From NCBI GenBank assembly GCA_002633005.1, contig NMRA01000282.1, positions 271,748 through 335,747 of the forward strand: a DNA stretch of 64,000 bases, given 5' to 3'. Below the pieces are notes generated by a model, which saw only the letters and a list, made by a program, of their open reading frames with translations, searched no databases and had not been told where the DNA came from. How positions within the stretch are numbered: the stretch's first letter is position 1; each line of letters starts with the position of its first letter. Source of the DNA: Phoronis australis. Its lineage: Eukaryota > Animalia > Phoronida. Shown here one piece after another: positions 23,600-49,026 of the stretch. A program made the translations under genes and the position numbers.

Positions 23600-24120
23600 G
23601 ATGATAGTCAGAACTATAAGCACATGGCCTTGTATTCAAGAATACCCCATTGACATTTTTTTCCCAAGAAATGCCCATGGGACATCAATGGGCCTTTCCA
23701 TAAAAAAGTTCAAATTCCAAGAAAACCTGTTAGGAAAAAAATGCCACTAGGGGCACAGCAGTTTTTGAGCTCGTGAAAATTTGGCACCTATCCTCCTCTA
23801 CTTGACAAAGATATTTGATGCCAAATTTCTTTCAAGTGGTTTGGAACAGAGAGAAGCAGACACCAGACGGACGAGTTCAGTAGTTTTAAAAAAGTTGACG
23901 AGTTTCCTCGAAATAGGTCTTGCTTGCTCGAAATTACAGCAAAACTTAAAAAGGAAATTAGATGCAAAATAAACTAATCATTTGACAAGTATCGGGAAAT
24001 TTTTGCTTCGAAATTTCCTCGATTTTTGATCAGACGAAAAATCATCAACTTTTTTGAAAACTGCTTTGCGGAGATGACATCAATATGCACATACCTATTG
24101 TATACGTGGGTGCATAAAAA
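23600..24120 (-). mobile_element. HINE-like element fragment
   Basis: Hairpin atgcac..gtgggtgcat-aaaaa at ~24086-24120 and a gccactagggg core at ~23743. Left boundary uncertain. Confidence 0.5.
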
Positions 24121-24950
24121 CCATTGTGTACAAAAGCATTAAAATCATAAGCTCATTTTTGTACACTGTACAGAGACCTTATTTTTCATCTGAAATAACA
24201 TTCTGATAGGCCGTGTGCCCGTAAGACATCAAGCATTAAACATCAGTAGAGAAAAAATAACTTATACAATCTTGAATGTATTATCTGAAGAATCACCTTA
24301 TTAGCCATACACTAACAAGGTGGTTCTCATAGAACTGTGATTGACCAGTCACTCTGAGTGTTGCCGATCCACACAATGCTACCTAGATCTGATGCTACAC
24401 AGATCAGGATTTCCCCTGGAACTTTGCCAATTATTGGGACCATGACAAATACAGAAAATCTACAGACAGTCTATTCCAATAGTTGTGTGCACGGTAAAAA
24501 TTCTCTCGTTTGGGACTCAGCACACTGAAAAAAGGTTGGAGCTCATACCAAATTTTAGAAATAGGCAATATTGGCAGTCCAAAATTAAAGAATGACGATC
24601 GACATACGACCCTTGACCTCAATGTTAAACAATATTCGTAAGCATGAAATGTTGCATTGTCGGCCATTTTCTATAATTTCATGAACTGTCAGATCTAATT
24701 TCAGACTTCATTGATTCGAAATGTAATATTTGAGAAATTATGATGAACGACAAAATTGCCCACGTCCCAATCTTTAGAATCAAGAGAATTCAAATTTGGT
24801 TTTCAATATCTGTGTCCCAAATTTTAGAGACTACCGTACTGGATAACTTTTACCGTAAGCAGTAGACTTAACAGCAATAACAGGATAACGTGAATACAAC
24901 TTATGGACAAGATAATAATAAATTAGTTACTGGGAAATGCCATGTTTTAC

Positions 24951-25240
24951 TTACGGCAGTAGCTTTTTCCTGGTATGTTTACATTTGTTTGCGATGGCAT
25001 CCAAACACGTTTTCCACTCACTCTCGAAATCCAGAACTGAGTCTTTAAACTTAGCGTAGACACGAGACTTGATCTGCATAAGTTTCACAGTGTCCAGTTG
25101 TTGAAAATTACGATATCCCGTCGGTGTCGAGGATGCAAGCTCCTGCTGTGAGAAGGTCAAGTCACACAATCGCAGTGCATAACGTCGTGCAGTCAACGTA
25201 GTCGGTAAATGAGAACTCAACGCATCAGAAAAGTTAGGGA
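24951..25240 (-). CDS. BEN-domain exon A (phase-1 acceptor)
   Basis: Polypyrimidine..TTTCAG acceptor. Uninterrupted YALRLCDLTFSQQELASST.TG..QLD..KL..IK..V..F..W..C..AIANKCKHTR follows the BEN pattern. Ends at TAA, which overlaps a possible GTAAGT donor. Confidence 0.85.
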
Positions 25241-26981
25241 CTGAAAAACAAAAAAATACAGCCATGCACTTCTGAGAATAAATAACACATCTTTTTATAG
25301 TACGTTTGAGTGAAAGAAAAATTAAACTGAACCTTGAACAGGACTACCGTTTATGTAACTGCCACGGCAGAATAGAGAGCAACAATTCATAGAAACAGTC
25401 ACAGCCAATTACTCGTTTATCAATGCACTTGGGAATCGTTTGTTGACATTTCTGTCTTTTTGACTCAATTGTTCCATAATCTACAAAGAAACAACATGAA
25501 CTAATAAGAAACTAACAGCAAAAATTGGAACAAAGAATCAAAATGGCATGGAAATAAAAACTGGTTACTCATACATCGTGATTCGATTACAATTTGATCA
25601 ATCATCGCACTCTACACCAACAATTGAGCAGCAACAAACAAAAGATAGTGTGCAGCAACAATGACATAATTATCAAAGGTGCACAGTTCACAGCACACAT
25701 GCACAAATATGGCAGTTTCCAGTTCTCATAACTGTGCCCACAGACCTTCAGTCCAAACTCTTGTTACATAACAATTCAGCATTTACCTTGGTAGTGATGG
25801 CGGAAAGGGGTAATAAAACTGATACAACAGAGATTATGCTTTGCATTTGCATTGTGCGACTTGCTCAAAGTGTCACACCTCCAGTTTAAAGAATTGTCGA
25901 TACTTTTTTATAAAAGTCAACCAAAAAGATTAAAAATAAAGTCAGAATAAGCAGAATGTGCCAAGTTGAAAGGCACCATTCCCCTTTCAGGAGGCGGTTA
26001 CTATAAATGAAATTGTCTTAAATTTTGCTCGGATCTTTGCTAAGGTCACTTCTACACCAAACTAAATTACTTTTCAGACGGAAGTTGAAGTTATGAGCTT
26101 TTTCCACAATGTAAGTACAGTACAGCCACTGAATTATTAGACTCTCTCCGGTCTGCCTAGGCGCGACTGTAACCGGAGAAATACCGGAGAGTGAGGCGTG
26201 AATCAACCGTGACAGCTGGCGTGAGCCTAAGAGTGACTGTACCCGAAGCTTACCGCGAGTTAGGTGTGAACGAAGCGCAAGCCAGCCATGAGTTTCCCCG
26301 TCTTGTCTACAGTCGGAACAGTCTTTAATTGCTATCCCCACTCGTTTAGCGAACAAAATACTGTATCGTATTTTGAGTGGCGTTTCCCATCGCTAGAATC
26401 ATCTTGACTAGTACGCTACTTGACTAGGACACTATTTAAGATTTAATTTAGGTTTGTCTGAACACACTACCAAGAGGGTTTATTTGTCTTGAAGACAAGT
26501 ACATTACGACTAAATATATCGTCATTGTTTCATTCAAGTTAGTGCTTACAATTTAATAATGATTTTGCGACTAAGGATGTGTTTGTGTTATGCGTGTTTC
26601 CGTACGCAGCAATGGAGGCAAAATGTGCAATACTCAAAGTGACACGAAGACACGTTTAGATTATGCTTTATTATAATAAGTAACTTTGCATATAGATAAA
26701 CACCATAGGCCTAGTGGAGCTATGAAATATGAACAAAAAGCCCAGATCATCTAACAAACGGCAGTAAAATGCGAGCATGCATGCAGAAAAGAGTAATGAT
26801 AACACTATCAAATAAAAATACCACTAATGCTACTAGTAATGATATTACATTTTAAGTAATACTAATAGTAACTATAATAGTAACTGTACTAGTAACAACT
26901 ACAGTATCAACTTCATTGCAGAGACACAAGTACATGTACATTGTAGGCATACAAAAAGAAGATGTCTACACGAAGGAAATA

Positions 26982-27268
26982 CTAAAATCGGCCTTTAGCC
27001 ATTTCTCTTCTAATATGTCGGCATTTTGCAGATATGGCATTCAGACAGGCTTTCCAAACGGTGTCAAAATTGGGGACTGACCCACCAAAGCGCCCTCGAA
27101 CTTTTGACTTTATTTCCTGTAGTTTGCTACTGTTTAAAGCCGGAGCGCCGCGGAAGCCTGTAACCGTCCCTGAGGCCAATTCCTCACGGCTAAACAGCCG
27201 GTCTGCTAGGATGCCTGCGTATCGTCTAGCGGCGTGTGATGGTGGTAATTTACCCACGACGGAGTTTG
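26982..27268 (-). CDS. BEN-domain exon B (phase-1 acceptor, terminal), inside the Tc1-type element
   Basis: ATTTTTCAG acceptor. Intact YAGILADRLFSREELASGTVTG..LNSSKLQEIK..WKACLNAISAKCRHIR. 40/80 aa identical to exon A without gaps. Confidence 0.85.
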
Positions 27269-27911
27269 CTGAAAAATATTTGTAACCGCAATTATCATTT
27301 TTATTTGTATTATTCCATTTACTTAACGAAGTAAAACTTCAACGAAGTTATAGACGTTTATTATTTAATTACGGTCTACGTTATCCACTCTTTCTTAAAG
27401 TGATTAAAGTAATTAAAATAACCTAAACGGTTAAGAGGGACTCGGCCAACATGTGCTGAACGCTACAGTATCTCAAAGGTCAAATAAACAGAAACATCTG
27501 GTGCAAATAATTTTGTGGTTTTTGACGACCGGAGACTCAAATTCAGTGTATATGTAATCTACTCCAAACCCAGAGCCCATTCACGCAAGGGCCAGTGGGG
27601 ATGACCAAAAACCCTAGGGCGCACGATTTAAAGAAAAACAATGTGTGAAAGAGTACCATTTTCGGACACCGGTGCGTAACGCGCTTCAGACTATTTCGAC
27701 AACAAGAGGCACCTTTTAGTAATTGGGCTTTTTGCAGTCTAGAACTAGCTACTTTTATTTATTTATATATTTAAACTTCTTTAAAAGACTGGGTGACCAT
27801 TTCAGTGTATACACTGATTTTCAAGTGGGCCCACTCAGAAATAATTACATGAAGCAAAATACAGACACTGAATAACGCCTACTATCCAGTGGAGCACATG
27901 TAACTGGTCCA

Positions 27912-30405
27912 CGGAACTTCCGGGGCTAGTTCGGTCCCGGGACTAGTTGGGCCACCGTCCCAAACTCCGCAATTATATGTGCACTTTCAGCCTCAGTCAT
28001 TCTGAGCAATCACATGACTTGTACCACTACACTAAAACCACGCTGGTTGAAGGCGGAGTGTTTTTCTTGATCTGACAGGCAACGATTGGTTTTAATCCAG
28101 GAGAATAAACTTTGGAGCTTCACTCGATTCACTGCTGGCCGTAAGCCATGAGCATTGATGTAAAAATGTTTTGTTCGTGGGTTTTAACAACAGCTTGCTC
28201 TTCAAGACAGGCCATGCGTTTCTTCAGATTCCTCAGTGATTGATGAGGTAATCATGTGTTTCCATTTAGAGCTAGCGGGGCAAATTGGGCCCTTTGACAT
28301 GGGGCTAGTCTGGCCAGAGGCCGAAATTGCCCCGTTCACTTTACTTGTTTACCTGATATATCATCAATTAATGTTTTTTTTTCAGGAAATTTAATGAGCA
28401 GCATTTATTATGAAATTGCACAAACTCATCTTAAATATGTTTCTTTGGTAGCACATTGTCATTTTGAAGGTTTGTGAACAAAAAATATCATTTTTAAATG
28501 TAAATATTGTGGGCACTAAAAATGTGAAAGTCTTTTACTCTATGTCTGATGCAAAGGCAGAACGGGTTAAAAGTAAAGCCTCTGGCTTGTGATCTACATT
28601 TACCGGGTGTCGTCTGGTCTTGAACATGTAAAATGCCAAGTTTTAATTATCATTTGTTTGACATTACAAGAGAAAAACTAAATCAAGAGAATCAGATACT
28701 CTAAGGGCAGCAGTCAGACCATCCCACCCTTCTTGATTTATTCTTGAGCACATTATAAGGAATACTTTATAAATGGAGCACCTGCTAGCTCAAAATGAAC
28801 CGCTCTTCCATCAGGCTGGATGACAGTTGACAACTTCACCATGTTTCTTCTGCATTTCGTCGAAAATGTCAAACCATCAAATGATGCTCCCTTACTCATT
28901 CTTCTTGATAACCACGATTCACATCTATCCATCAATACCTTGGACTCAATTTACGAGGTTCAAGAGTTAGTGCTCATTACGATGGGGCAGTTTGTAAGAA
29001 CCCAGAATCGCCTATCCAACCTGAGCAATCCCGAAATCAGATTCAGCAGCCCGTGATTGTCGATAACCAAGGAAATGAGTGGTTTTCGTCACCCATGGGT
29101 CTGTTCATGAACATTACATTCACTAGAAAACATCTTCTACAAACTCCTCATTGTACCAAATCATTTGCTGAAGATTCAGTTCGCAAGGCCCTACCTCATA
29201 TCATTAATAACTTTCCTGAAAGTGATTCCCAAAAAAATTTTGCCCATTCGTTATCCTCTGAACAGTTATAAATTATTTTAGTTTGTTTGAAAGTTATGAA
29301 CTTGAGTGCACTATTCCCCACTGCTCTGTGAGTAACTATTTTCGATAATCTTTCCAAAAGTCTTTTTATAAGTAGTTTTAAGTTACATTATCACCTAATT
29401 GTATAATTATGATTATCTGTATATTTTATTTTTTATTCTTTGGTGGCTCCGTGGTCAGCGGACCCTTCGGGTCTTTCACAGTCTCCATAAGAGTATTACT
29501 AAATTTGTATTAATTGTATTTTTGTTGTTACGTGAATAGAGTGTTTTACTAGTATGTACTACAGACTACAGGCAGTGAGACCACACCCAACAGCTCCACC
29601 CTGCAAAACCACAGGTAGAAACAGAAAACGGAGAAAATCGTCCATTCTCACCTACACATCAGAGAAAGAGGCCTTGAGAGAACAAGCTAAGGGAAAGAAG
29701 AAATCTATGAGAAAGCTTGCTGTTGACACAAAACCAAAACAAAAAGAGAAATTGCCATTCCCATCTTCAGACAGCCAGTCTGAATTAACAGGAGTGTTTT
29801 GCCTCGTTTGTCTAGAGCCATATTTTAACAGCAGGAGTAAAGAAAAGTGGGTCCCCTGCGTTGAGTGCAAAGGGCAAGCCCACAAGGAATGCGATGACAA
29901 TGGGATGCTGCCCTTCTTTGTGTGCCGCAGCTGCAACTCAGATGAGGACTAAAGCAAATACGTTTATACTCTCACCTTGTTTACTTTTAATAGCTCATTA
30001 AGTAAAAAAGTAGCATTTGATCATCAGTTTAGTAGGTGAAAGATTATGATACTTGCGAAGTATTTTTAATAGACAGTTGACATTCAAGCCCTAGTTCTTG
30101 TGTAATTTACGGTCCTTTGGGACAAATAAACAGGCATACACCAACACAAAATTTTGCAAAAATGTGTTTTTGTTCATTTTAAGAGTACTGCAATGGAGGC
30201 CAAACTTGCTTGTTGGGCCCCCGAAAGTGGACATGTTAAAACGAAAATTGCTACAAGACTGGTGCACTTACATCGCTTAACTTTGCACCATATATTGGCT
30301 GACAGACCGCACTTCCTGCACAGCGCTTATGAATGAACCAGCTTAAACAGTTTCCACAATATCGCACTTTTTACAAAAAAGGGTTGAACTAGCCCTGGTC
30401 TCCCT
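27912..30405 (+). mobile_element. pogo/Tigger-like element (DDE_1 plus C-terminal PHD) nested in the Tc1-type element
   Basis: Imperfect TIR core ccggggctagtt / aactagccctgg. SGWMT..F..FL.HF..LLILLDNHDSH at ~28760-28940. CLVC..WV.C.EC..AH.EC..FVCRSC at 29554-29952. Confidence 0.8.
28950..29540 (+). mobile_element. Non-LTR (LINE) 3'-end fragment inserted in pogo
   Basis: Interrupts the DDE_1 frame. Has an RT C-terminal-like peptide (TRKHLL..AEDSVRKALPHIINNFP) followed by an AT-rich tail. Confidence 0.4.
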
Positions 30406-31441
30406 TAATTTAGACGGTTAAAATACAGATTTCCCCTATTCATCACTCCATTAGAGGTATGACTTCCGAGAGACGAATTTCACGCATTTAGAGTCTGAAT
30501 GTCAAAAAGGAAAATTCCCGAGTCCGAAATTCACTCTGATGATCTCACTTACGGCCAGTTTTGAAAAACGTTTTAGGCCTAAAGATAGGCACCTCGGGGG
30601 AAGGAGATCGGGATTTCAGGGATTTTGACCTTTTTACGTTTTGCTGGAGTGAGAGTATCCCTCCTGGGCCCGAGTACATTACGGCGTTTTCCTGTTGCTC
30701 CTAACTTGTCTGATTCTATAGCCCAACAACAAGTTGGGAAGTTTACCCCTGTAGCCAATATCTTATACGACTGATTAACTCCATGCTGGCATTTATGGTT
30801 GGAGGGCCAGCTCTCTTTTGTTCCATAAGTCTTCTAATCTCCAATAAGATCGTATCTACCCTGACTGGGATGTGCTGTTAAAAATTAAAGTTAAATTATA
30901 ACATATTTGAACATAAATCAATATCATTTCTGACATCTTCATCAAATGGTGACCATGTGTAGTTTTTGAATCGCCAAACTCGCCCAACTGCAACCGAAGT
31001 TACGACAATCTATTCTTTCCGAATACACCAATTCACTCTGGGTTTGCCTGTGTTTACATGTGGTCTGCCATAACCCTGGTACATAATTGGCCTGCCTGTT
31101 GTTATAACAGACAAAAGAGTGTGCTTGGCAGTTAACAAAGAAGCTATATGTTATAATAGGCTTACCGCCCCCTACCTCTGGTTAAGTCACTGAACGGGAA
31201 AACGCTGCCATGTAATAATAACCCCGGTGCAAAGGACTTAGTTGCATGGTGGCATGTGGACCTTTTCCTGTTACCGACTTTTCGCGGATATTTTTTCCAA
31301 GGATCGTACTTAGACCCTTATTACGGGCGTGCAGGTCCCCGTTTTATTTCAGTACTTACGTGTCACTACTTTTCATCTACTCACTGAAACTGGGGATGAT
31401 GTCACTTCCGCTGATTCTTCATGCATCAATTGGCTTGCCTA

Positions 31442-31935
31442 CGGAGCAGAAGAAATGTTCTCCCCAAGAGTGGATTCTGCACGGCTGGACTCTTGATCAT
31501 GAATTAAAAGACTTGGGTCAATTCTAGATAACATTCGTTTCACAGTTTCTGTCTCTCTTTCAAATTTGTCAATGGCAAATTCCACAATGCCCTTTAATTG
31601 ATTGGTTTCCTTCTGCACGTTAATCAGTGTTTTTTTTTGATGTCTCTTGCCCAAGTCAGGACCGACTCTCATGTTTCGTCTATGTTGCTGGAAGGGAATT
31701 GATCATCGACATGAGATGGTGATCTAGACCACTGGCTGTGAAGTTCAATGAAGCGTCTCCTCGTTGGCGTGTTACCGCCTATCACAGGGGTGCTGCTGCT
31801 GGTGACCATGGTTTGTGCTGCAGAGGTGTAGTGCGTCGGAGAATCCTGAAATGTGCTGGCAAAGCGAACCATAATTTCCTCGTCTTCAGATGAAGCCTCG
31901 AATGATGTGATTATGGAGAGAGAAGTGGGGGAGAT
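31442..31935 (-). pseudogene. Low-complexity/coiled-coil exon, probable upstream part of the Tc1 cargo BEN gene (disrupted)
   Basis: S/T/E-rich segment followed by coiled-coil-like VQKETNQLKGIVEFAIDKFERETETVKRML. One stop and one frameshift. GTAGGC donor. Confidence 0.45.
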
Positions 31936-32982
31936 CTACACGCGATACACTCTGTATTGCAAACTTGAAACTGATATACTTATCTGCACTGCTTTATAAA
32001 GGAATTTTGTCCTACACACTACTTCCAGTGGTGGCCCCTTTAATAGGGATAAAGTGTGGTCCCAAAATGTACTTGATGTATGCAGAATACCAGCCGAGGC
32101 ATATTAGCCTATGTTTGTGCAAATTTAGTATTCTGGTTATTTTTATTAAAATCGCAACCTGGAGAAACTGGTTAACCATAACTTTTGCCTGACAACATCC
32201 TACTAAAAGTAAGTTGGGAGGGGGCGGGTGCGTGTGGCGTGTATGTTAAGGGTGAGAATGGCTTGATTTTTTTCTTACATATCTGTATTTCTGTTCTGTA
32301 TACCAATAAAAAAAATTGCAACTGTAAAAAAAAAAATCGCAATTGACGGTTGAATTCTGGTACTATTTTTAACGTAGCGACATGTGTAGCTGTTGCTCAC
32401 ATTCTTTCATAGACGGCCTCCATCCTCGCTGCGAAACCAGAGTCAGCGTTTGTATACAAATGTTAGGTAATGCATGCATGTACATTGCGTCTTGTCTATT
32501 TAGCGATATATTTGACAGTTTCTTGGTGGTCAATTAGACCGATAGTCAAACTCATACCGACAAAATCTCCCAAAAAGCGTTCTACTGTATGGACTAACAG
32601 AATGTCACAACCCTCGAAGCTGGCAATACTAGTGATGAAGATATACCCCTTGTCAACTATTCAAGAGGACAAATTGTCGGTCGCAGGTACAGGGATGGAT
32701 TGAACGATTATGACGAAGAACCACTGGCAGCTTTTTCAAGGTCTTGGAAAGCTTAACCCGTAAAAGTTAGTTCTTGCTGTTACGTGCAGTTTATGGTATA
32801 AATGGTACTCATAACATAACATGCATCACAATTATTTCTATGTAAAGTGCACCACTACGTGTTCCAAAAATTTTAACAGCCATCAACTTCTTGCATTCAA
32901 TATTCATTTGTGATGTATATCTGTTATTTTTTATTCTATATTGTGCTTGAAACCACTGGTGATGTTGTTTTTAATATTCAGA

Positions 32983-33090
32983 TACCGTTTTCGCCGTAAT
33001 AACCGCCCATGCCCCTATAAGCGCCCCCCACGCGTTTTCAGACTTTGCTGAAATAAGTGCCCAGTCCATGAACGTGTACATGTGAACAAT
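32983..33090 (+). repeat. End of a TA-CCGT (pogo/Tc2-like) element; inverted copy at ~46634-46740
   Basis: taccgttttcgccgtaataaccgcccatgccc..gtccatgaacgtgtacatgtgaa matches the reverse complement of 46634-46740. Confidence 0.7.
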
Positions 33091-33212
33091 GACGTACCTA
33101 CAGTCCTAAAACTCGGCTACAGTAACGTCTTCCAATTTATCAAAAAATTTTTACACGGGTCTTCTGGACCACCAGTGGCACTGCTACGTACATATTTGTT
33201 TCCTGATTTCAG

Positions 33213-33623
33213 TTGCATGTCTGGGCCGGCATCAGTATGTGTGGAGCGACTTACAGATATCGTGATTTTTGAAGGAATTATGGATTGTTTTTTGTACATC
33301 TCAATACTACGAAAAGCACAGCTGCTATTTATTGCAAGGAAGTATACATCAATACTGGCCAAGAAGTTTATGAGGGACCAAGTGATAAATTGGGTGCCTA
33401 CCCCCCTGAAAGTGCAGACCTCAACCCAATTGAAAATGTCTGGCATGAACAAAAGGAATACATAGGAAAGCACTCTAAGCCAACCACCAAGCAAGAGCTC
33501 GTCAATGATATCCAAGCTTTTTGGAAGACTGTCACTCTAGCAAAATGCAAACGATATATTTGCCATTTACTTAAATTTGTTCCTGAAGTCATATGCTGTA
33601 ATGGAGCAGTCACTGGATATCAA
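33213..33623 (+). pseudogene. Tc1-family (DDE_3) transposase, last exon relic
   Basis: TTTCAG acceptor, then HVWAGIS..IVIFEGIMD..INW..PPESADLNPIENVWHE.K..KPTTKQELV..FW..GAVTGY. The QDNDPKH segment is missing. Confidence 0.9.
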
Positions 33624-35972
33624 AGCACAATTAAAGTTGCCAACATTATGATTGCATACCTTTGGCACTGCAGACACAATGAAACAAGTGTTATTTCTCT
33701 ACCTGTCAATACAATACCATTTGTCATCATCTTTCACATTTTACATTCAACTACATGACTTCAAAATTATGAAGGACCACCAATTAAATTTAAAGTTACA
33801 AATTGTCTTTGTTTTTTGATGGTCGTTATCATTAGTGACCAGTGCATGTTCTATGTGAATTAGCGCTCTTTAACAATTATAATGACGTGGCTGAATAAGA
33901 AACTATTGAGCATAATTTTTTTAATTGTTTTGATAGGTATAATTAATTCACTTGTACAGTATCTTGCACACAGATTTATGTTGTTATGTTGTAACAGTAT
34001 CGTTGGAATTACGAGTCTTATATTAGATATACACTATACACTGTGTATTGTATTTCATTTAAGTTCATACTATTAGATTAAATTAGTGCCAGTCTTGAGA
34101 ACTCAGCTTTACTCTCTGGTGCCTGCCTCATCAGTGGAAGAAAATGTTTATACATTGTATGACCTCAACAGAATATAATGTACATACGTGCAATTGATAA
34201 TTTGTCTGTCCTTGGTATGGTTTTCGAAGTTTAACATTCAAACATGCTGCTTTCGCTGACACATGCGATATTAGGGGGTTGTTTCATAAAAGTCACCTAC
34301 GACAGAAATTTGGTCTGATGCTCCCATTTCATCGCCTGTATCAAGTTTTAGTCAAGTACATTTAATTATGAGTGCATCGAAAATGAAAAAGTAATTTATG
34401 AAAATTTTATCGGTAACTAGCAGTGATGTGTGTATTCTCATAGACTTTTGCTCATGTGAGGTTTAATTATTTTTTAGAAATCATTACTTGCAGCGAAAGA
34501 CCAAAATTTCTGTCTCAAATCTTAAGTCACTTCAGAAAACAGACCTCTGGACATTACTTTTCACTTATATATAATTACTTGTTTTTTTTAGATAAACTAA
34601 TAAAGAATGTTAACACGCGTGTACATGGCGGAATTATTCAATTGCCTTCACGATATGAAGGAAATAGCATGTGAATTCTGAGCACATTTATCCCAAGTTC
34701 CAGCATCATGCAGAGAAAACTGATCGCGCCCATGCATTTGACAACAAATGACCGCTATTATTATTATTTCAGCGAAGAAGTACCCCGGGGATACTGTGTA
34801 CTCATTCGAAATGCATGTACTACGGAGATGGGGCTACAAATAATTACACCGCACTACGGATTGAGGACTTTTAAGTCAACACATTTGCTCAGCAGTAAGG
34901 GATGGGGATGTCAGATGGGCGGCCTATTGAAATTTTCTGTACGCCAGTGCAGTGCAAAAATTTACAGAGTGACGCAATTCTTTCACAAATGCGTAGGCTA
35001 TTTTTAGGGCGAATTAACTATATACAGCTGTGACAAGTTTCAAGGAGTCCACAGCCATGTAAAGATGACTCTGGATACAGGGTCGCGTTTATTCGTATAT
35101 ACTCATCGTGATTACTGTACATGTATGTCATTGATGGGACTGGCTTTTAAGTCGTAAATTGAACATGAACATGAAAGTGTAACACAAGACCAGCTGAAGG
35201 AAGACGTTTGTATGAACAACACGTGGAATTACAGAGTTAGTCGGAACCCAAGTGTGATAGATGACTGCTTACAAAGATACTCTATAATATACTATAATAT
35301 CCTTGCAACTTGACCGAAACAACAGTCAGATCAAGACGTTACATGTATTTTTACTGATTAGCCCGGTGCCCGACCATGGTTACCACAGCTACCGAAGGCG
35401 AGAGGAAAGCCTGAACGAGGCGTGAGGAAGGCGTTAACTAAACCGGAGGTAAGCGTGAGAACTACCTGGAGAGTAAGCGTGAGATGACCGTGACTGATTT
35501 CTGTCACGCCTGCGATCCGGTTAAGCTCCGGTCTGGCTGGGCATGAGGTAGCCCGGACGAAGTCTAATAATTCAGTAGCTGTACTGTAGCATGATTATAG
35601 GCATGGCCACAGGGGGACCCACACTGAGCAATAGACCAACCCCAAAATACCCCATGACACTCTACATTCTATGTCATTTACCCACAATCCCGCATACATC
35701 TGTCCAGCCCTTATCCTGCTAACTCAAACACTGCTGTGTTGGTCATTACATCATGTGAAAACTAATATTTCATCCGTCCTTTTAATGCCAGAGACATTTA
35801 CTTGAGGTGTGATACTGACGCCAGAAAATTGACGAGCATGATGGATACCAGTGGGCAATAACACCTCAAACACGACCAACATGTTGAAAGCTAAGCTACT
35901 TATACACTGGATTTTCCTACTTGTGGAAAAAGGAAGACATTAATTTGAGAGAAAGCGATTAAAGTTGCTTAC

Positions 35973-36170
35973 GATCTGTCGCCGAGGTCGTTCCCACCAG
36001 CTTTGAGGTACATGATGGGGTAGCGTTTACTTGCACTGGAGGGGTACCCTGTGGTCCAGTTCCCATGGTGACTGGCACTGGCTGTATCTGTTTCATGTCC
36101 ACTAGTTGTTTGAGCAGACCTCTGATAGCACTGACATCATCTTCAAGACTGCTAGACTCCATGAGGATGG
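35973..36170 (-). CDS. Host gene L, last shared exon (phase 1-1), coiled-coil-like plus linker
   Basis: Acceptor ttttgtatcccag, donor GTAAGC. Encodes ILMESSSLEDDVSAIRGLLKQLVDMK..TTSATD. 198 nt with no stops. Confidence 0.75.
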
Positions 36171-36852
36171 CTGGGATACAAAAGGTGCAGTCGTATTATG
36201 TGACTACTTCGTACGGGTCAAGTCGAAATAAAAGCTAACACAAAGTAGGATCTTCTGAAATTGGCATGCATTGTATGTCTTAAAGCCAGAAAACACTGGA
36301 GATTGAGCAGTACTGATGCCACCTAATGTTTGGCAATGGAATCAAGTTTAATTCCAACCTGCAAGCAACCCTATTGCCTTCGGGAAGGACATGCAGATCA
36401 TCACCTCAGCAGGCCAACTGACTATTGTCTACAACACTCCTCAGAAAGACCTGGGGTGAAAAGTGACTCAAAAATACAAATCCTGGGGCTTGTGATATTG
36501 TAAAAAGTAAATAATCTTACTGTGTTTCAATCACTTGACTTATGATCAGAGTCTCAATTCTCTCAATCAAGTAAGCAACAATATAAGCAGTATTTACAAT
36601 ATCCAGAAACCTGGTCTTACTCTACACAACTATTTCCAAAAAAACTGGTTTAACCTCAACAGAATAAGGTACTAAGCCTCTGGAAATACCCAAAATTCCT
36701 TTAAGTAATGAGCCATTACTGCTTCACTGTGATGTGACAACAATTACGAAATACCTTCATTCAAGTATACAGGAAAGAGAGCGCAAGACAAAGTTACTGA
36801 CTTGAGCCTTGAGTCCCTTTCTATGAAACAGGCCCCACAAATACTCAACAAC

Positions 36853-38376
36853 AGCAACGCAGAGCGTTGAAATGCACCCACAATTGCACCGCATACGGTA
36901 TCCTTCTAGGGTTGTTTATTGGTACCATTAAGTGGCCAGTAGAGGGCATATATGTAGTATGTTGTACTCAGCAAAATGGAAAGGCATGGTCATTGTCTCC
37001 TCAATAGGCTAGGGGCAAAATGTGAGTAATCTTCATAATACAAGCACATCCTATACACCAGTTGCTTAAAGCACCACAGAAACATAGAATTAAAAACAAA
37101 TTTACCAACATACGAGATTAGCACAGCATTAGAATGCCAGAAACAAATTTCTACTTGGAACTTTTCCTTCACAGTCACGAAGTAACACAAAGTATACACC
37201 TGAAGACCTATGAAAATACAGAGGTCAATGTAAAATACTAAAATTGCCACTAGAGGCAAACACTAAAATTGCCACTAGAGGCATACCGGTAGTCAGAATC
37301 ATCCTAAAGTCGTCATCGTCCGTTGTCAACATCACATAAATACACTTGCTAAATTTAGTAAAGATCCTGCAAACGGTTTGGGAGATACAGCCATGGGCGC
37401 AAAAAAACAAAACTGCCACTAGGAGGCGCCACAGTAGTCCAAATCGTCTGAAAATCATTGTCAGCTGTCTTCCTTATAGTAAGCACATACACGCCAATTT
37501 TCACAATCATCCTTTGAGCGGTTTGGTTGATAGAGGGGTGGACGCAAAAATACAGACTCGAAAACAGTAAAAATGGCCACTAGGTGGCGCAAACTACGTC
37601 GAATCCATCTGAAAACAGTAGGATAGCGTCATCTCACTAATAGGTGCCTACATACCAAATTTCATGAAAATCCGTTCAATACTTTTGAAGATACAAAGGT
37701 AAGCGTAAAAAACTAAAATTGCCACTAGGGGGCACACCGGTAGTCGGATCCGACCAAAAGTCGTCATCTTCCGTTGTTAACATCATATAAATATACTTAC
37801 ACAATTTGTAAAGATCCTGCGAACGGTTTAGGAGATACAGCCATAGGCGCAAAAAAACAAAACTGCCACTAGGAGGCGCCACAGTAGTCGAAATCGTCGG
37901 AAAATCATCGTCAACCATCCTCTACATAGTAAGCATATACATGCCAATTTTCACAATCATCCTTTGAGCGGTTTGGTTGATAGAGGGGTGGAAGCACAAA
38001 AACAGACTCGAAAACACTAAAAACGGCCACTAGGTGGCGCAAACTATGTCGAATCCATCTGAAAACGGCAGGATAGCATTATCTCACTAATAGGTGCCTA
38101 CATACCAAATTTCATGAAAATTCGTTCAGGACTTTTGAAGATACAAAGGTAACCGTAAAAAACTTAAATTGCTACTAGGGGGCACACCGGTAGTCGAATC
38201 CGTCCGAAAGTTCGCACATGCCGTCCCATTCATGAATGGAACATATGTGCCAAATTTCATGAACGTATGTCAAAGGGTTTTGGAGATAGAGCAGCGGACG
38301 CCGCCCGGATGGATGGACGGATGGACAGAGATGACGGCATAATGCGTCCACATATAAATATGTGGGCGCATAAAAA
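36853..38376 (-). mobile_element. HINE/DINE-1-like non-autonomous Helentron with central tandem repeats
   Basis: 5' T-run plus hairpin atgcgcccaca..tgtggacgcat, a GTCC/ATCC microsatellite, 144-161-bp subunits in a 450-bp higher-order repeat, a 3' subTIR tgtgggtgcat and the palindrome caacgc..gcgttg. Confidence 0.85.
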
Positions 38377-39498
38377 GTCAAGACCACATTTATTACTGTA
38401 AGAGATCAAAAGTTGGTATTCTTGACATCAGTGCCCTGGGTTTAATATTTGAACTCGGACTTGACAATCAACCAATAGCATACCGTATGATTCAAGTACA
38501 AATTTATACGAAACGTAGGATTCAACTGGTCAAGTTTCGAGTACTTAAGAGAATAAACCCCAGTCCCAGAAGTCGTCAGTTAAAAGTATGATGCTCCTTT
38601 ACAAAATTTTCAAAAAACACCTAAAACATACAAACCTTTTGTTACTTGCGTCTTGGAGGTAGAACTTTCATTTGGCAAAGGGTTACTGAGAGATCTATGA
38701 AGAGAGATCTACAATGAGACATATGGACACAAACCAACATCCTTAAGTATTATTGTGCAACGTTTCTGGCCTTTCTTTTCATCACAAATATAACTTTTCA
38801 GTTACTCATGAAGCACATCAACTACCAACACTTTAAACACTCTCATGAGATGAGTCTCCAAAATGACCTGGAGTCGTTTCATTAAACTGACTTAAGACTT
38901 AGAACGAAATTTAGTCTTTTGCTCACAGTTCACGATTGTTGAAAACAGGTTTAGCCAAGTAATTATGATTGCATCACAGTCTAGAAATAAATTATAGAAA
39001 TCATCAGTTACTAGTAAATTTGTGTATATTCTCAGAAACTTTCCACTTGAGCTTAAGTGAGATATCAGTGCCAGATAAACCATTAAACTAATTAAGCTCA
39101 GGGGCACCACACAACATAGAGGGAGGGGTGGAAGTTGTGCCAACCGGAGGAAGAATTGGATTGGGTCCCGAGAAACCTTATTCTGTCACTGAAGGTGATG
39201 TTCAGGAGAGCAAAATACCTGGCACTCTAACCTAGAAGGTAGCATCTCCGTGTTTATTATAGAGCTTCGATATTCATGAAAAACCAGTATGGGACAACAA
39301 TGCAAACTCACTTTGTCAAAGAATATTTTACCTCATTATCAACACTGTAGTGCAGCCGTATTCAAACACACTGTGCGCTCTAGCTTTTGGAAAACAATTT
39401 CAGTCACTGTTTTCATTCAAATTTGAAGCAACTTAAATGAACAAAGCCAGGTTGACATGAATCAACCAATCGTTGAGGTTGCTAGGAAACCGACTCAC

Positions 39499-40114
39499 TC
39501 ATTGGCTGTTAGTGGAGTATCCAGGTTGCGGTCACCACGCAGTGCTGGGGCCCTCCACCACAACTCTTCCTCAAGTGAAGTCTCCCCACCGCTCTCCTCT
39601 GAGCAGCCTTCCACAGGCTCTACCTTCACAACACTCATGCACAACGATGGTTGCGCCATCATCGACGCCTCGCCAGAATCCAGCTCTTTTTCTCTAGCCT
39701 TATTCACATCCGCAGTAAGTTTCAGTCGTGGCGAGGGTGTGGCAAAACCATCATCTCCTTGAGAAATCTGTAAATTTTTTTCGCGTACGTCACATTCAGC
39801 CTGTGTCTCCTCCACGTCCTCCATACGGTCGGCAGCAGCACCCTCTTCAGTGTCTCCAACACAAGTGGTCTCTTTTTCAGGTTCAATCAGAGACTCGCGG
39901 CAAGCACTTTTCAAATTCAGCTGCGTATTATTTGAGATCCTTTGAAACACACTTGGCGACTTCATGGCTTTGCTAGTCAGGAATGTTCGGCTAGCAGAAC
40001 GATACGGATGAATTCGATGGCCAACAGGGGAACAGGAGTCTGTACTTCTGTTCATTGATGTAGGCCACTTTGAAGGATGAATTACAGGTGATAGGGTGCT
40101 TTCTGTGGATTCAT
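39499..40114 (-). CDS. Host gene L, large low-complexity exon (phase 1-2)
   Basis: Acceptor ttcttctttag, donor GTGAGT. 616 nt open, containing HPSKWP, RIHPY and VKVEP. Confidence 0.8.
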
Positions 40115-40125
40115 CTAAAGAAGAA

Positions 40126-41313
40126 TAATAATCAATTAGCTAAGGGCAACAGAATTGGAAACAGGTATTTTGTTCCATTACTTTTTGGCTAACTTTATAA
40201 ATCCTTGTTACAGTATTCCTACATTATTTCGAGTATAATCTCACCTTCCACCACAAACAACAACTTCTCATTCAGACCAGTGTGCAAGCTATTGTTTGAG
40301 GCCAGGCTCTACAAGTTTGCTCGCCAGAGATTGATTTTACAGCGTAATTGGTATAAATTAAAAATTCACCTCGTCAACAGAACGCAGCCTCAACAACATA
40401 GAAGCAGAGTGCCAACATGCGTCCATGTACATTGCAAATGCCAAAAATATAAAGGGTACCAATTTTCCTAACAATTCTATGCACTAGAGAGAAGCGGTGG
40501 TGTACTTGAAAATGAGCCCACAGTGTACATTGGTAGTCATCCCAAAATTGGCAAAGATGCTCCTAGTAGATCTTAAAATTGACAGTAAGAAAACTAAAAT
40601 TAACGCAAAGGGGCACTGCAGCAGATGAATCCTTTCAGTAACTGATGCACGCTCTCCTGAATGAACAACATTTGTTATGCTTCGCCANAAAAAAAAAAAA
40701 AAAAAAAACTTGCTGTCAGAGCAACATACTTGGCGGAAGAATTCCGCCAAGTAATAATCAATTAGCTAAGGGCAACAGAATTGGAAACAAGTATTTTGTT
40801 CCATTACTTTTTGGCTAACTTTATAAATCCTTGTTACAGTATTCCTACATTATTTCGAGTATAATCTCACCTTCCACCACAAAAAACAACTTCTCATTCA
40901 GACCAGTGTGCAAGCTATTGTTTGAGGCCAGGCTCTACAAGTTTGCTCGCCAGAGATTGATTTTACAGTGTAATTGGTATAAATTAAAAATTCACCTCGT
41001 CAACAGAACGCAGCCTCAACAACATAGATGCAGAGTGCCAACATGCGTCCATGTACATTGCAAATGCCAAAAATATAAAGGGTGCCAATTTTCCTAACAA
41101 TTCTATGTACTAGAGAGAAGCGGTGGTGTACTTGAAAATGAGCCCACAGTGTACATTGGTAGTCATCCCAAAATTGGCAAAGATGCTCCTAGTAGATCTT
41201 AAAATTGACAGTAAGAAAACTAAAATTAACGCAAAGGGGCACTGCAGCAGATGAATCCTTTCAGTAACTGATGCACGCTCTCCTGAATGAACAACATTTG
41301 TTATGCTTTGCCA
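40126..41313. repeat. 562-bp tandem duplication (40126-40687 / 40752-41313) around an N gap
   Basis: Near-identical copies at offset 626. The N at 40688 is followed by poly(A) and a hairpin. Confidence 0.9.
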
Positions 41314-43649
41314 AGGAGTTTGGCAGACTGAGAGACAGATACCAAAGTGAATAATAATCTAAAAACACTCCCAACACAGGTCGCAACTGTATAAAATCTT
41401 ATCTGCCACATTTCATGCATATTCTACATCAAACTTCTTAAAATATTGATAGAAACTTCCCGCAACAGCCTCCAAATTTTTCTAAAAGTCGTCCTCATCT
41501 ATCGCCATGTGCCACAAACTCGCCGGATTTTTACGAATCCAACAATTGGAAAACAGATGGAATTTGGAATTGTTCGGCAAAAAATGACAGGATTTGACCA
41601 CGTGACAAAGACAAACAATGTTGTTCGATTGCTTATTTTAAATAGGAGCTAAAGGAGGGTGATTGTCCGCAGCCAGACCTGCAAATGCCCAACCATTTTT
41701 TCTGACTAGAGAACAGAAAAATAAGCAAGAAAACCGAAAGAGAAAAAATGACGCGACAGGGATATACCCAGGTTTCAAAACCCAGCTTGCCAGCTAGGTG
41801 AGTGAGCCACATAATCTACTCGCCCAGCCCGAAATTCAATTGCCTGGCCGTTAGCATCTGTCATCACAAACTTGCTGCCAGGGTCAATAAAAATCATCGT
41901 TTCGTGCGTTGATGTCACCATCTATTAGGGCTAGCGTATTCGCCCAGGGTGCTTAGAAAAATTCATTTCGGAAGGGGGGCCATTGTTCTAGCCTAAGGCA
42001 GTTGAAACCCGGTCTCCAACAACAGGTAAAATCAAATTTACGAGCTGTGACGTATCTGTAACCTATGACAGACTTTCAACAAAACTGCAGTGCATTGCTA
42101 ACAAACTTTGTTGTTAAATTACGATATATATTTTTTAAATGTGCTGACATCCCATGGCAAAAACTTGCCGACTGATGCGTCACTGCCTCGCAATTGTCGA
42201 TAGGGTAACTTGAATTCTTGAGTAAAAATACAGTTTCGACTCAACAAATTACCTGAAATTCTCCTCAAAGGAGAATGCCACCCAAAAATAACCTATTTTG
42301 TATCAATTTAGATCGAGTGGTTCCACTTGATAACAGCAAGAACGGTTCTTTTACCTGACACAAGACGACAGACAGAGGTGTCGAAATTAACCAATGACCT
42401 CAGAGGTTTGAACGTAGTCTGTTCAGCAGTTCACAATACGCTTACTGGTGTCAGCTTATCGATTGAATTCATCGTTTTACACCAAAAAATCAACAAAAGT
42501 CGATGTAAAACCCTTACAAATACATCAAGTTATTGAACAAATGTGTTGTTTTATTTTGCTGTTACAGATTTATAGGTATTGGAACATAGCGTAGCCTACA
42601 AGGTTCGGTAGGCCAATTTTCCAAGGTCGGTCGCGGGAGTTTTGTGCCCTGTTCGGAGATAAATTCGAATTATTCATCCTTGAAATACAGACAGGGGAAC
42701 ATAGCTGTGTGTTGTAATATTAGACTTGCGATTTTTTCAGTTCTAAACACACAAAAACGCTCGTTCTCCCAGCCAGTGGCTTGGAACCCGATCAGGCCCG
42801 TCGCGGCCGGCTTGAAGACATCACGAACATATACCAGCCAAGGTTAGAAACTAAACTTCCAGTCACAAAAAACTATACTAGTGAGCCAAAGGAATATTGT
42901 GCACATGTTTATTTTGGTGAATTAGACGCAAAACTGCAAATCTACTAACTAACTCGTCAGGGGCCGCAAAGTCAGGTTACCCTTCCATAGCAAAACCGTC
43001 AGGGCAAAAGTTGCACAGTAACAATGATTCGAATAATGTATACGAATATCTAAATAAAGATTTCCCTAACATCTGACCATTGGATATGCAATCGAGATAT
43101 CGTTTCACAACAGCTTTCTGTCAGCAAACACTGAATTAGCATGTGCTCAAATGGCCAACATGTGGAGAATTTCTTGCTTACACTGGTGACCAATCCGATT
43201 CCCTAAGCCCCAGACAACTTTTAGGATGCCTATTCAGCACGCCCTTTGTATTCCTGTAGATCTGAGCTAATGAAGTGGAAATGTAATTGCTAGCATTACT
43301 ATCTTTACAATGGTTGTTGTTAGTACCAATTTGGTTTTCTCTAAAATTTGCAGAGTTACAGCCCGCAACTCTGGAGAGTAGTTTTAACTTGGTACATCAT
43401 AAATATTACAAAATGACTAAAAAGGTTAACTTTGACTGTGTTTATCTTCACAAAGGGCCACTTCCCAAAGGAACGTTAAGTTTCATATTGGTTTTCTTTA
43501 TTTAATTTTTAATGCTTCTGCAAACTTGTTTTTTTTCTTACAGGGAACAGGTTGATAGCTTCGTTTATACCACAATATTAGTGCAAATGGCAAATACAAC
43601 CGTGTAATAACCCATTTGGTTATTTCACTACTGAGATAACACTTTGCGG

Positions 43650-43720
43650 GAAACCGAGGCCGGTTTCGAACCCAAGCCTCAAGAGTTTCGAGTCGCCGAC
43701 TTTACCACTACAACACACAG
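43650..43720 (-). repeat. tRNA-derived (SINE-head-like) sequence
   Basis: A-box-like gtagtggtaaa and B-box gggttcgaaacc. The cloverleaf is imperfect. Confidence 0.5.
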
Positions 43721-45579
43721 AGGATGACGTCATCGAACGTGAAAATAGAATACTTAAATGAGCACGCGCAACAATCGCATGTTCAGCAAAGGGCATAGTA
43801 CCGACATTTATACGCTATGAAAAATAAGACGCATAATTTCCATAAAAACAATATTTTAATTCAGTGAAATTTTTCTCTCGTGTTCTCTCACTTGTAAATC
43901 ACCGATCTCCAATTTGAATGCGGGTATCGCGTCATCGGAATCCTTTGACTTGAGTATTACACTCAGTTACTAGTGGTAACCTACTTTAGCAGACGATATA
44001 TTCCCGGTCGAAGCTTAGCGTGATAAAATGTGTAGTAAGCTATAATAGTTGCTAAACCTTAATTTATAGATGCACTATATTTCTATTTTGTTTAACTTTT
44101 CAGTTGGTTTTGAGTAAAAGCATTATTTGACATAAATAGCTCAGCTTTTCTTAAAAGGTCACAACCTCCGACCCCAGGCCCATTGGGCGATAATTCTCCA
44201 AAATCCACTCTGGCTCTAGATAACGGGGGATAACGACTTTGCCATGTAATAATCTATATATCCAAGTTTTAAGCTTGAAGTAACAAAATAGTGGTACATT
44301 TTGATCGCCAGCGAAACTTAATTAATTAAGTTCATTGTGAGCCCATCCCTAAAATTACCACATTACAGGTACACTAAACATTTCACGTGTCATTAAAGTT
44401 TAATCTTTATTAGAACTCAAATCATAAAATATATACAAAAGTGCAAATATGGTGATAACGAAACTGAAGATTTGGAATTTCTGGACAGTTTAGGTGGCAC
44501 TGACTATATAACTATTCTAGCTCTTTGTCAGTAATAAAAATGAAAAGTGGGCACAACTGTTCCCCGGTCAAAAATCTGGTTAAACGAGATTGAATGAATA
44601 TCAAAAAAATGAATCCACGTGATATTGTTAACTCTGATAAGCGTTTGTATATTCACTGAGTATATCAATACGCGCGGTAGTTTATCTTCAATCGTACCCA
44701 ATGGTTATATTATTAGTTCATCTATTTTTAAAAATTGAAAACCGTACTTGGCTGTTTTTTTTCCAGCTGAATACCGCCGTGGTGTTCGTTTATGACGAAA
44801 ATAAGTGGTTAATGCACTTTGAAAATTCACCATTATGTACAGTCAGAGATGTTTAATACAGTTTATGGTCCGATAATTACATTTAATTGGTTCTTGCTTG
44901 CATCGGCCAATGCGGACATCACAATTGTACCTGATTTCGGCGCCGCACTCTCTTCGATCCTGGTACAAACCGCTAACCGTAGAAATGCATGACTTCCTTG
45001 TAAGCGTATTATTCACAGTATGAAGGTGCCCAATCAGTTTGTTGTATCTTTGTTTAAGTTTTACATAAGCATTGCTTAGGGTGAGAATAATTCATTTTGA
45101 AACAAATAGCACAATAATAAACGTCAACCGTGTCAACTCGCCCGGCGCCAATCCCGACTTAGTCAAGAGCTCATCCGACGAAGACTTTACAGGTCGATCG
45201 TTAGGTTTCACAACCTATCAGTTCAAATCGAAATTCACTGATCAAGAAATACAAAAGAGGTGCCGTGAACATATGGATAGTTCCAAAAACCGTTTGAAAA
45301 GCGTAGATGTGTCCAACGGACCATCCCCATTTTGCACCACATCTACTTATGATGCTTATGATGTTTTTGGGAAAAAGAACTGGCGAAAACATCCTACACC
45401 CAGAGGTCCACACAGAAGCCTGACGAACGAGTAAGTCATCAAACAGGTTATATAAAATGTTATGTTTTCATACCTTGAACTAATTGTAATTGTTTAATAT
45501 GTTTCCATGGCCAGCTACAATTCTCCATAATCAAAAACTGACCTACAACCGATCCGCGTTGTTTTGTCTCCAGCCTACC

Positions 45580-45886
45580 GAACCCAAACACACTAGGCAC
45601 TACGTTTGACTTCATACTCAGTCTCTTTTTCTGTCCTGGCATGAGCTGTTTGGTAAGGCGGCATTCGATCGTCAGTGAAATCACTGTAGACGAAATGCCG
45701 GCCACAAACACAGAGAAGTTTCACGGCCTCATACTTAATTGGTATTACGGCGTACTTTTCATTCTTCACTACCGCGAACCATTTCCAAAGCATTGTGTGC
45801 TCTAGAGGAAATCGAAAAAAAAGCGATATATCTGCTTTCCTCGTAGCTTCATAGTTCACACAAGCGGGAACGATACACCACTCCAT
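45580..45886 (-). pseudogene. THAP-domain relic
   Basis: WCIVPACVN..FFRFP..W..VCGRHF..DF, then after a frameshift NVVPSVF. Confidence 0.8.
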
Positions 45887-46369
45887 AGCGGCACTCACTC
45901 TGCAGAAGAACCACTGATGTCGCTGAGTTGTTTCTCACAGGTTAACGCGACACCTCTCGGCGAGGTGAGATTGACCGTATACGAGGTGATGTGGATATAG
46001 ACCGATTAAGACGGTATAAAAAGACGAATTAAATCGGGTGACATTCTCATTTAAGTTGTCCAAATAGCGGGATTAACCGCATTCCAAATATGGACTAGAT
46101 TGCACCCCGCAACAAGCAAAAAATCTGGACGAACACACGTTGTTGTCACGTGACGTTTGTTTTGAAGTTAGTCTGCAGTTGTGCGCCGAGTGAGCGAACA
46201 CGTGCTTGTCATCAGAGTTCATTTGCCAGAGTCAGTAGCAGGCCCACATAGTAACTTATATGTGGGCCCTAGCACGCACTTCTTGGCCAAGTGCTCATTA
46301 ACAGTGGTCAAGTTTCGATTCGCGGTTTTACGTACAAAAGTAATCTGCATTCCTGTTGAAGGAGAAGAG

Positions 46370-46740
46370 CTGTACGGGAAAGATGCAACATAATCCCGTT
46401 GACAAGTATGCTGCGTCTGTTCTGAAAGACCTGGCCATAGTGGGACACGTTCCTCACAAGATCAGCAGAACTTTTGCGTTCTTTTTGAATTGTACAGCCA
46501 CAGCTTAATTCCCTATATAGCAGTGAGGCTCGTGGTCTAGAAATTCGGTAGACGATGATTTTTTTTGACTGTCAGAAATTATTGATATATTGAAGACATT
46601 ACTATGGAATTTTAAAACTGTAGGTAAGGCATTTTTCACATATGTACACGTTCATGGACTGGACTCTTATTTTAGCGAAGTCTGAAAACGAGTGCAGGGG
46701 GTCGCTTATAGGGGCATGGGCGCTTATTAGGACGAATGCT
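46370..46740 (+). mobile_element. HIRAN-domain relic plus terminus of a pogo/Tc2-like element
   Basis: HNPVDKYAASVLKD.AIVGHVPHKISRTFAFFL, followed by the terminus shared with 32983-33090. Confidence 0.6.
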
Positions 46741-47579
46741 ATTATTTATAAAATAATTTTTGGCTAAAATGACATTGCATTGTACATTACAATAAGAAAT
46801 CAGTTCCAAGAATGATGGTATTTCAATTGCTGCGAGCACATGGACCGGTCTTCCGCCTTTCCCCCCTTTTTCTTCATTTCGGACTAGTCCACAAATTCCT
46901 TTGTGCACGACCACACACTGTGCTTTTGTCTAGACATCTACTGAATTGGTAGGATCGCTGTGTGCCAAGGTTTACTGCCGGAGCATCAACACGCTGACTA
47001 AATTGAACCTTAAATTTGTGATAAAAACAGCACAAGCAGGAGAAAATTTATTCACGTTCACCTGTGAAACGACAGTGTTTTTGCGCTCTGAAAATTCGCT
47101 CGCTGCCTGAGCGACCGGCAAGTCAACTTCTACTCACCCAGCAACATTTTACTCGCATTCATCCGGTATTGCTAATTTCATTGTCAAAGTCACATTAGCT
47201 GGAAAAAGTTACCGGGGCTGTGGCGCAAACCTTCGCCCGGTACCACAGGTCAGCATCATTCATTGGTCGCCAAATAACAGAACATCTGTGTTTCAATCCA
47301 GTCTCACCGATTTAGAACAGATTTTGATGAACATTTAATGTAATAAAGGATGATACATTCACAACAAACCAACTCTATTAACAACATGATCAAATCATAT
47401 TTGATATAAATGTTTGCGATGACATCAACTCAAAAGCACTGTTTTCTCATTATATTATTTCGTTTTCGTTTGATATAACTTCTAGCCGAAGAGTTCTTTC
47501 ATGAAAATCATGAAAGTCCTGTTTTTGGATTGCCCCTCTCGCTAGAACATTTTGAAAAGAATCCCCTAAAGCAATCCGA

Positions 47580-48318
47580 GAACTGCGCATAAATCATAAT
47601 ATTCGTACAGCTCGGCAGCAAACCTTCGTTAACACAAACTCTGCTGAAGACACGACTGGACTTTTTGTTTGACAGCTTAACACAGACTCGCTTGTAGTGT
47701 CTAAACAATCTTATTTCTTCAGCCGTGCATCTATGTAGCAAAACACCGAGAGACATAACAAACAAATTAAAACACTAGCTATATTTCGGGACCGCGTGTC
47801 TCAACATCAGGCAATGAGTGAAATTAACATACACAAAGTGAAATAAACAAAGAAATTCACAGTGAAAGCAGGTAGAGGGGTATACAAGCAGAGAGTGTGA
47901 ATGTATTACACGGTAGGAAGACCACAACCCTATCGAAATAGAGCCAGCGTGCCGTACACACCAGTGAGCTGCTCATTCAGCACAGGTTTTTCATGACTTA
48001 TCAATAGGGACTCCAAAATCTGTGGATGAGTAGCTCACAGGTGTGTACCACACACTGGCTTTGTTTTGTTAGGCTTATTGGCTTCCTACCGTGTGACATA
48101 GTCAAAAACTCTTCTGCTTGTATTCCAATCTACCTGCTGTTAATTCTGTTCATAAATTGCCCGATGATGAGACATATGGTCTCAAAAGATAGCTAGTGTT
48201 TTAATTTGTTTGTTACGTCTCTCGGTGTTTTGCTATAGCTGCATGCCTGAAGAAAGTAGATTGCTTAGAGACACTACGAGCGAGTCTGTATTAAGCTGTC
48301 AAACAAGAAGTCCACTCA
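47580..48318. mobile_element. Penelope-like inverted pseudo-LTR pair (long imperfect palindrome)
   Basis: Arms ~47655-47990 and ~48005-48318 are reverse complements. Each has a degenerate CTGATGA..GAAA core and a PLE-like ORF start (IRLFRHY.RVC.KL..F..VC.NEGLLP..TNI). Confidence 0.75.
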
Positions 48319-48477
48319 ACAAAGCATAGTATCTGAAACTCCATATGACTTCGATCAGCCACCTGCGAGATGCAATGTTTTAAAGTTAGCCAAATATGGA
48401 CATTTTTAAGGGTCCTACAAAACAGAGTTATACATCTAGTAGAATGAATGTTCATGTCACTGAGTTATGTTCATCAC

Positions 48478-48629
48478 CTGCATCATCAGCCATCAGCAAC
48501 ATGTAGCCAAATAGTTTGTACTCAGCCATTTTGATGTCCAGCCAAGCTACAAAGTCCGGGATCTCATCTGGTGTTGCTTCCTGGACCATAGTGCAGAAGC
48601 ATGCCCGAAGGTTTCGCTTGAGGGTCACC
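48478..48629 (-). CDS. Host gene L, exon encoding the shared N-terminal domain (ends phase 1)
   Basis: Acceptor tttctgtttatag, donor GTGATG. NLRACFCTMVQEATPDEIPDFVAWLDIKMAEYKLFGYMLL is paralogous to 55521-55662. Start codon unresolved. Confidence 0.85.
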
Positions 48630-49026
48630 CTATAAACAGAAATTAGGTTATAACATGGGCAAAGGATGATTACAGCACTACATATCATAATACTTAAGTT
48701 CACACAACGAGTTACCCCAGAACAAGTTATTCCAAGAATGAGTTGTTGCTATTAATAGAATTATGGTATTTGAGCTGGGGACAATTTAGTACACGTGGAA
48801 AAACATACCACATCTTACTGAAGTAGGGTAACTTGTAACATAACTTATTTTAGAACAAGTTGCAGGGTGGATGTATATAATGACTATCGTCTCTACCCAG
48901 AGTAGTGACGATGAAGCTCCTATAAGGGCTCCATACGTCGGAAGCTTTTCGGCGAATTATGCGTCGCACTGACTAAAACATCAAAGCCACATTGTTATAA
49001 ATACCTTTTGCGCTTAGAGGGACACC

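Follow-up and report, generated by a model that had tools for sequence, protein, structure and literature searches.

Swappable DNA-binding ends have been described mainly for insect BTB genes. The mod(mdg4) and lola genes join constant front exons to alternative DNA-binding last exons, which gives at least 30 and 20 isoforms, respectively (PMC11426971). Both fly loci use trans-splicing (PMC11426971; PMC4387717), and isoform C of mod(mdg4) carries a BEN domain (PMC3510454). The same source describes Elba1 and Elba2, two BEN proteins that are united through their N-terminal parts (PMC3510454). Two other systems are relevant for their arrangement: Pack-TIRs, in which the halves of an element surround extra sequence and form chimeric transcripts with a host gene (Tan et al. 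2021, PMC8277862), and PGRP-LC, in which every alternative 3' cassette is preceded by a selector that can pair with a single docking site (PMC6191721). The locus considered here lies in a 64,000-nt stretch of the Phoronis australis genome (contig NMRA01000282.1, positions 271,748 to 335,747; hereafter the window), where a minus-strand exon, A, has two alternative splice partners, the last exons B and C, each with a BEN domain. We consider this to be probably a host gene whose products are two isoforms of a transcription factor that share their front end.

The use of two alternative last exons from one donor is confirmed by RNA reads. Three raw runs (X1, X2 and X3; same species label, one study), with approximately 18-19% of each run read, were mapped for junctions onto positions 24500-36500 of the window. 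Six reads join A to B (27268^35973; five from X1 with four starts, one from X3, none from X2), and five join A to C (25240^35973; two from X1 with two starts, three from X3 with three starts, none from X2), for a total of 11 junction reads at the donor of exon A. All are stranded as for minus-strand RNA, contain no ambiguous letters, and have CT..AC on the plus strand (equivalent to GT-AG), with a short side of up to 65-71 letters. The original prediction, which was made from the letters of the window, had named both junctions, and both are present in two of the three runs. B is spliced to the host exon A, and not only to exons internal to the surrounding element; among the eight joints listed for the mapped region, none runs from A to an exon that lies between it and B. 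The gene is expressed at a low level.

The exon structure itself agrees with what had been proposed. The positions of the exons and the phase-1 donor of A are supported by AG/GT ends and an open frame, and A encodes a short amphipathic helix followed by low-complexity sequence. Likewise, B and C have clean AG acceptors in phase 1 and join A in frames that remain open until each is terminated by a stop. The two translations align without gaps, with the previously counted 40 of 80 amino acids identical (residues 7-86 of B), compared to at most eight identities at any other offset. The proposed comparison with Pfam BEN (PF10523; gathering score 23.2 bits) gives 36.3 bits for B and 23.2 bits for C. 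There are two BEN exons in the window, and no third copy is found by the BEN profile in six frames of the whole window; other domain types were scanned on chosen open reading frames (ORFs).

The AlphaFold model of B (29-row alignment) has a mean confidence (pLDDT) of 90.9, and the first 13 rows listed by Foldseek for this model are all BEN domains (best TM score 0.74, probability 1.00, E 0.016). Weak fold-search E-values are usual for a small domain. The closest structures are the BEN domains of BANP, BEND3, Insv, BEND6 and Bsg25A, and profile matches are to BEND3 and BANP. Identity to solved BEN domains is 16-28%. An Atlas search with B gives BEN clusters only, and no BEN relative is found in viral contigs. 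The best match of B is a Nematostella vectensis protein (P0001, LOC5512772) with 6-7 BEN domains in one chain; in some cases, such multi-BEN gene models could represent alternative exons that were chained together. In a quick BEN tree of 72 rows (from which P0019, P0036 and P0051-P0059 were left out), B and C are near each other, at a fork that the tree does not resolve.

B and C differ at a proportion of 0.92 of silent sites (pS; saturated) and 0.40 of nonsilent sites (pN), and both frames are open, so each has been maintained over a long period. On this substitution pattern, both BEN exons have evidently been under long purifying selection. In BEND3, base contacts are made via E807, R810, R814 and K815 (PMC8887127). 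The aligned residues are A/R/R/E in B and N/K/K/K in C, so that all four base-reading positions differ between the two exons, which suggests different DNA targets. B and C are accordingly predicted to prefer different DNA sequences, using a template that is 25% identical. Each domain also has a basic C-terminal helix, and DNA binding by both would be expected from their membership in the BEN family.

The chain of exons upstream of A begins, in our model, with an exon for a predicted N-terminal domain; a long exon of low complexity comes next, and then a small linker. Alignment of two sequences gives a two-helix model for 47 amino acids of the domain, with no strands. At E 0.1, none of the three exons (domain, long and A) matches a Pfam family, no BTB domain is found in the front end at E 5, and the front domain has no PDB or Atlas match. 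A fold search with the two-helix model returned generic hairpins only (best Z 6.1) and is uninformative. These results fit the earlier suggestion of a non-BTB front end. The long exon overlaps a bin (39312-39965) with strictly minus-strand RNA depths of 4.34, 2.82 and 1.25, which are similar to the depth of exon A, and the linker is the best non-repeat candidate among ten listed with a generic splice matrix. From the exon phases, the domain exon is probably linked to exon A, and the front domain may have a partner-binding role. Alternatively, exon A could belong to a short BEN-only gene with its own start, and the domain exon to another transcript. No read is seen joined to 36170, there is an in-frame ATG near the start of A, and many of the matches are BEN-only proteins that have a short coiled coil. 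We nevertheless regard this as improbable: the acceptor of A is good, RNA from the long exon is of the same strand and of similar depth, and a paralog has the same three-exon phase series, which ends in phase 1.

That paralog lies head-to-head with the minus-strand gene, and the two are oriented away from a CG-rich stretch at approximately 53000-53240. Its domain exon is 45% identical to that upstream of A, and the phase series 2-1, 1-2, 2-1 is common to both genes, so we consider the front domain to be real. Two of three metagenome loci were retained as further relatives. These animal-like contigs (L001 and L002) have a front domain with 47% identity that ends in the same phase-1 donor and precedes a long exon of low complexity. 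The tail of L001 (4004-5676) contains at least three in-frame exons with no BEN and no Pfam match, and may resemble SAMD3-like proteins. Since L001 ends in a non-BEN tail, the front module belongs to a small family in which it occurs before different tails. Two other candidates were dropped: L003, a bacterial ORF with a score below threshold, and L004, a partial match with no intron.

Exon B, and not C, is enclosed by a pair of inverted repeats, which, like the head-to-head paralog, did not figure in the original prediction. The arms form the longest inverted repeat in 24000-36500 and are a unique pair in the window. Their outer letters match at 27 of 28 positions, with a TA flank at both ends, and the helix that they could form scores 76, compared to at most 45 in 30 shuffles, with a duplex energy of -100.9 kcal/mol. 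We take the TA-flanked CAGT ends to be the Tc1/mariner pattern. Some reads connect the two halves of the element directly, by joining 26958 to 35420 (ten reads from X3) or 35431 (two reads from X2), and skip 8.4 kb that includes B; these possibly come from one deleted copy. Divergent reads of the opposite strand cover 26314-26461 and 26884-26923. Together, the half-joining and divergent reads imply at least one sister copy of the element without the 8.4-kb interior that holds B. No match to the repeat was found in viral or metagenome contigs. Downstream of B, the first AATAAA after the stop codon lies at 26672, inside the repeated right half of the element, and sense-strand depths in the bin at 26505-26905 are 2.2, 2.2 and 0, with lower values beyond, consistent with a 3' untranslated region (UTR) in this interval.

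The interior of the element also contains decayed coding sequence. Pieces of pogo-like (DDE_1 match, Cys-rich finger) and Tc1-like (DDE_3, below cut-off) transposases lie on the plus strand at 27900-30420 and 33052-33755. An ORF at 31935-31442 (minus strand) is frameshifted, with Ser/Thr-rich and coiled-coil-like parts, no Pfam match and almost no reads; B may once have had it as an upstream exon. The observation that ORFs of transposable elements around the BEN exons are nearly all broken fits these data, as no frame in the window is free of stops for more than 237 amino acids and transposase matches occur in short fragments.

How B came to lie within the element is less certain than its use. 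We lean slightly toward the view that B is cargo of an inverted-repeat element, in the manner of a Pack-TIR. The main competitor, which we find quite possible though not probable, is an old in-place tandem duplication of the last exon, with transposon halves that flanked B later and have no role; the two-isoform gene would still be real. The shared acceptor phase and ungapped alignment of B and C fit this account, as does their proximity among the 72 BEN rows with the fork left unresolved. In addition, the saturated silent sites make the B/C split much older than the repeat copies, which are 95-97% alike; a recent origin of B by copying of C is therefore out of the question. On the other hand, the reads from a sister copy join the halves at points that have no overlap in the window, and if there had been two independent insertions, the half lost from one would have to be precisely the half kept in the other. 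In a third account, B is a transposon-borne gene trap that is spliced through a usable acceptor and poly(A) site to give a product useless to the host. Expression is low, and B shares the repeat pair with the decayed, frameshifted coiled-coil ORF, possibly its former upstream exon. However, the frame of B is intact, in contrast to the transposases within the element, all of which are in fragments. B is also spliced about as frequently as C (six versus five reads), and the sole listed coding difference in the B reads is conservative (L24M), so we consider this account unlikely.

Returning to the host gene with two isoforms, the common front would consist of a probable uncatalogued helical domain of 47 amino acids and a long flexible linker, followed by one of two BEN ends. 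The isoforms would be expected to act in the nucleus, bind DNA, and differ in their targets. A Tc1/mariner-like element in the A-to-C intron would have brought B, and would supply its poly(A) signal. The choice between ends would most simply be a race, in which the transcript is either spliced to B and polyadenylated at 26672, or B is skipped in favor of C. With a generic matrix, the acceptor of B is weak (-0.2) compared to that of C (5.0), and the most likely control is that B, with its poly(A) site, competes with read-through to C. Pairing of the arms in the pre-mRNA is predicted to loop B out, hide it and favor C, and would leave an effective distance of approximately 1,260 nt in the A-to-C intron of 10,732 nt. 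Rfam gives no match. The most specific version of this scheme, in which a BEN gene of an uncatalogued modular family received B, together with its poly(A) site, from a transposon that entered its last intron, and pairing of the repeats now removes B by looping so that C, the original ending, is used again, we consider unlikely as a whole.

Several observations weigh against this reading of the gene and of its origin. The 11 junction reads come from two of three runs of a single study, and X2 has depth over A, B and C, yet no read for either join. No read ties the front exons to A, and the domain exon is outside the read-mapped stretches. The best donor of the long exon is in phase 2, which makes necessary the linker exon, known from prediction alone, and the intron above the long exon spans an assembly gap (N at 40688). 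Exon C reaches Pfam BEN only at the cut-off of 23.2 bits. Searches with B (longer), C (near length) and the front domain (longer) gave no orthologue. As for the element, the B/C split is far older than the repeat arms and B may predate it, and no parent copy of B is found in the window. Finally, no shared docking site for B and C was found, as 50 of 200 shuffles score as well.

Table 1. Features of the two-ended BEN gene and its surroundings, in window coordinates (nt = nucleotides, aa = amino acids).
Feature	Positions	Strand	Remarks
N-terminal domain exon, predicted	48629-48478	minus	~47-50 aa, uncatalogued; phase 2 in, 1 out; open frame, AG/GT ends
Long low-complexity exon, predicted	40114-39499	minus	open 204 aa; phase 1 in, 2 out; same phases as paralog exon 58271-58937
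Small linker exon, candidate	38694 or 38685 to 38636	minus	phase 2 to 1; putative
Exon A, last shared exon	36170-35973	minus	198 nt; AG/GT ends; phase 1 in and out; stop-free
Left inverted-repeat arm	35504-35588	.	TA then CAGT; 384 nt past A donor
Exon B, alternative last exon	27268-26982	minus	BEN domain, 94 aa; Pfam and junction reads
3' UTR of B isoform, likely	26981-26672	minus	first AATAAA after B stop at 26672
Right inverted-repeat arm	26116-26201	.	ACTG then TA; 875 nt before C acceptor
Exon C, alternative last exon	25240-24951	minus	BEN domain, 95 aa; outside inverted-repeat pair; Pfam and junction reads
Shared promoter region, probable	53000-53240	.	CG-rich; candidate first exons of both genes; donors 53014 (minus) and 53237 (plus), putative
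Paralog domain exon	55499-55662	plus	45% identical to 48629-48478; BLASTP E 1e-12
Paralog long low-complexity exon	58271-58937	plus	phase 1-2
Paralog small exon	59335-59417	plus	phase 2-1; end of paralog beyond window

Near-identical duplications at 40126-41313 and 53907-54983 lie beside single Ns (40688 and 54584) and look like artefacts of contig overlap, and at one end of the window (1-6720), a 94% tandem duplication pairs positions 1-2496 with 4239-6720. A dispersed repeat in the intron above A (36847-38376) is abundantly transcribed, with depth >1000 from other copies. The upstream introns contain more inverted-repeat pairs at 48874-52306 and 47654-48317 (arms of ~150 nt; palindromic 660-nt element). 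Fragments of piggyBac-like (DDE_Tnp_1_7), YqaJ plus PHD, and DDE_Tnp_4 sequences, together with two THAP ORFs, occur at 8006-17204 and 45596-45934.

Compared to BEND3, BANP, NACC1/2, Insv and Elba1/2, the products of this gene are similar in BEN sequence and fold, and in having a C-terminal BEN domain after a long linker. Those factors are encoded by separate genes or have tandem domains in one chain, whereas here the BEN domains are alternatives from one donor. The likeness to Pack-TIRs lies in the terminal inverted repeats with TA at both ends and in the enclosed sequence that is transcribed with the host. The human Pack-TIRs in the accessible text of PMC8277862 are retained introns or UTR extensions, while B is a spliced, in-frame coding last exon. 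PGRP-LC also has alternative 3' cassettes, and there long-range RNA pairing aids the choice; here no docking site common to the two ends was found, and the sole strong helix is that of the repeat pair, which would skip B. A literature search that covered few subscription papers listed no work on a gene without BTB whose alternative last exons encode BEN domains, or on BEN exons in inverted-repeat elements.

With mod(mdg4) and lola, the locus shares the use of one constant donor for alternative DNA-binding last exons. The analogy that had been drawn to these genes holds for the layout, with both junctions and a non-BTB front; only two endings, and no array, were found in the window. The system as found is small, with two isoforms in place of 20-30 endings, both of them BEN and with no BTB domain in front, and both ends lie downstream on the same strand, so that cis-splicing suffices, whereas the fly loci trans-splice. 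Animal genes often have a pair of alternative last exons that stem from duplication of a domain, and the support here is 11 reads, which tempers the importance of the case. What the locus adds is an RNA-supported swap between two BEN ends, behind what is probably an uncatalogued front domain unrelated to BTB. Should B prove to be cargo and its use be steered by the repeats, the locus would show one way in which such arrays begin: the transposon would have supplied both the exon and the switch, and the gene would represent a lola-like cassette that has reached two exons and still shows where it came from.

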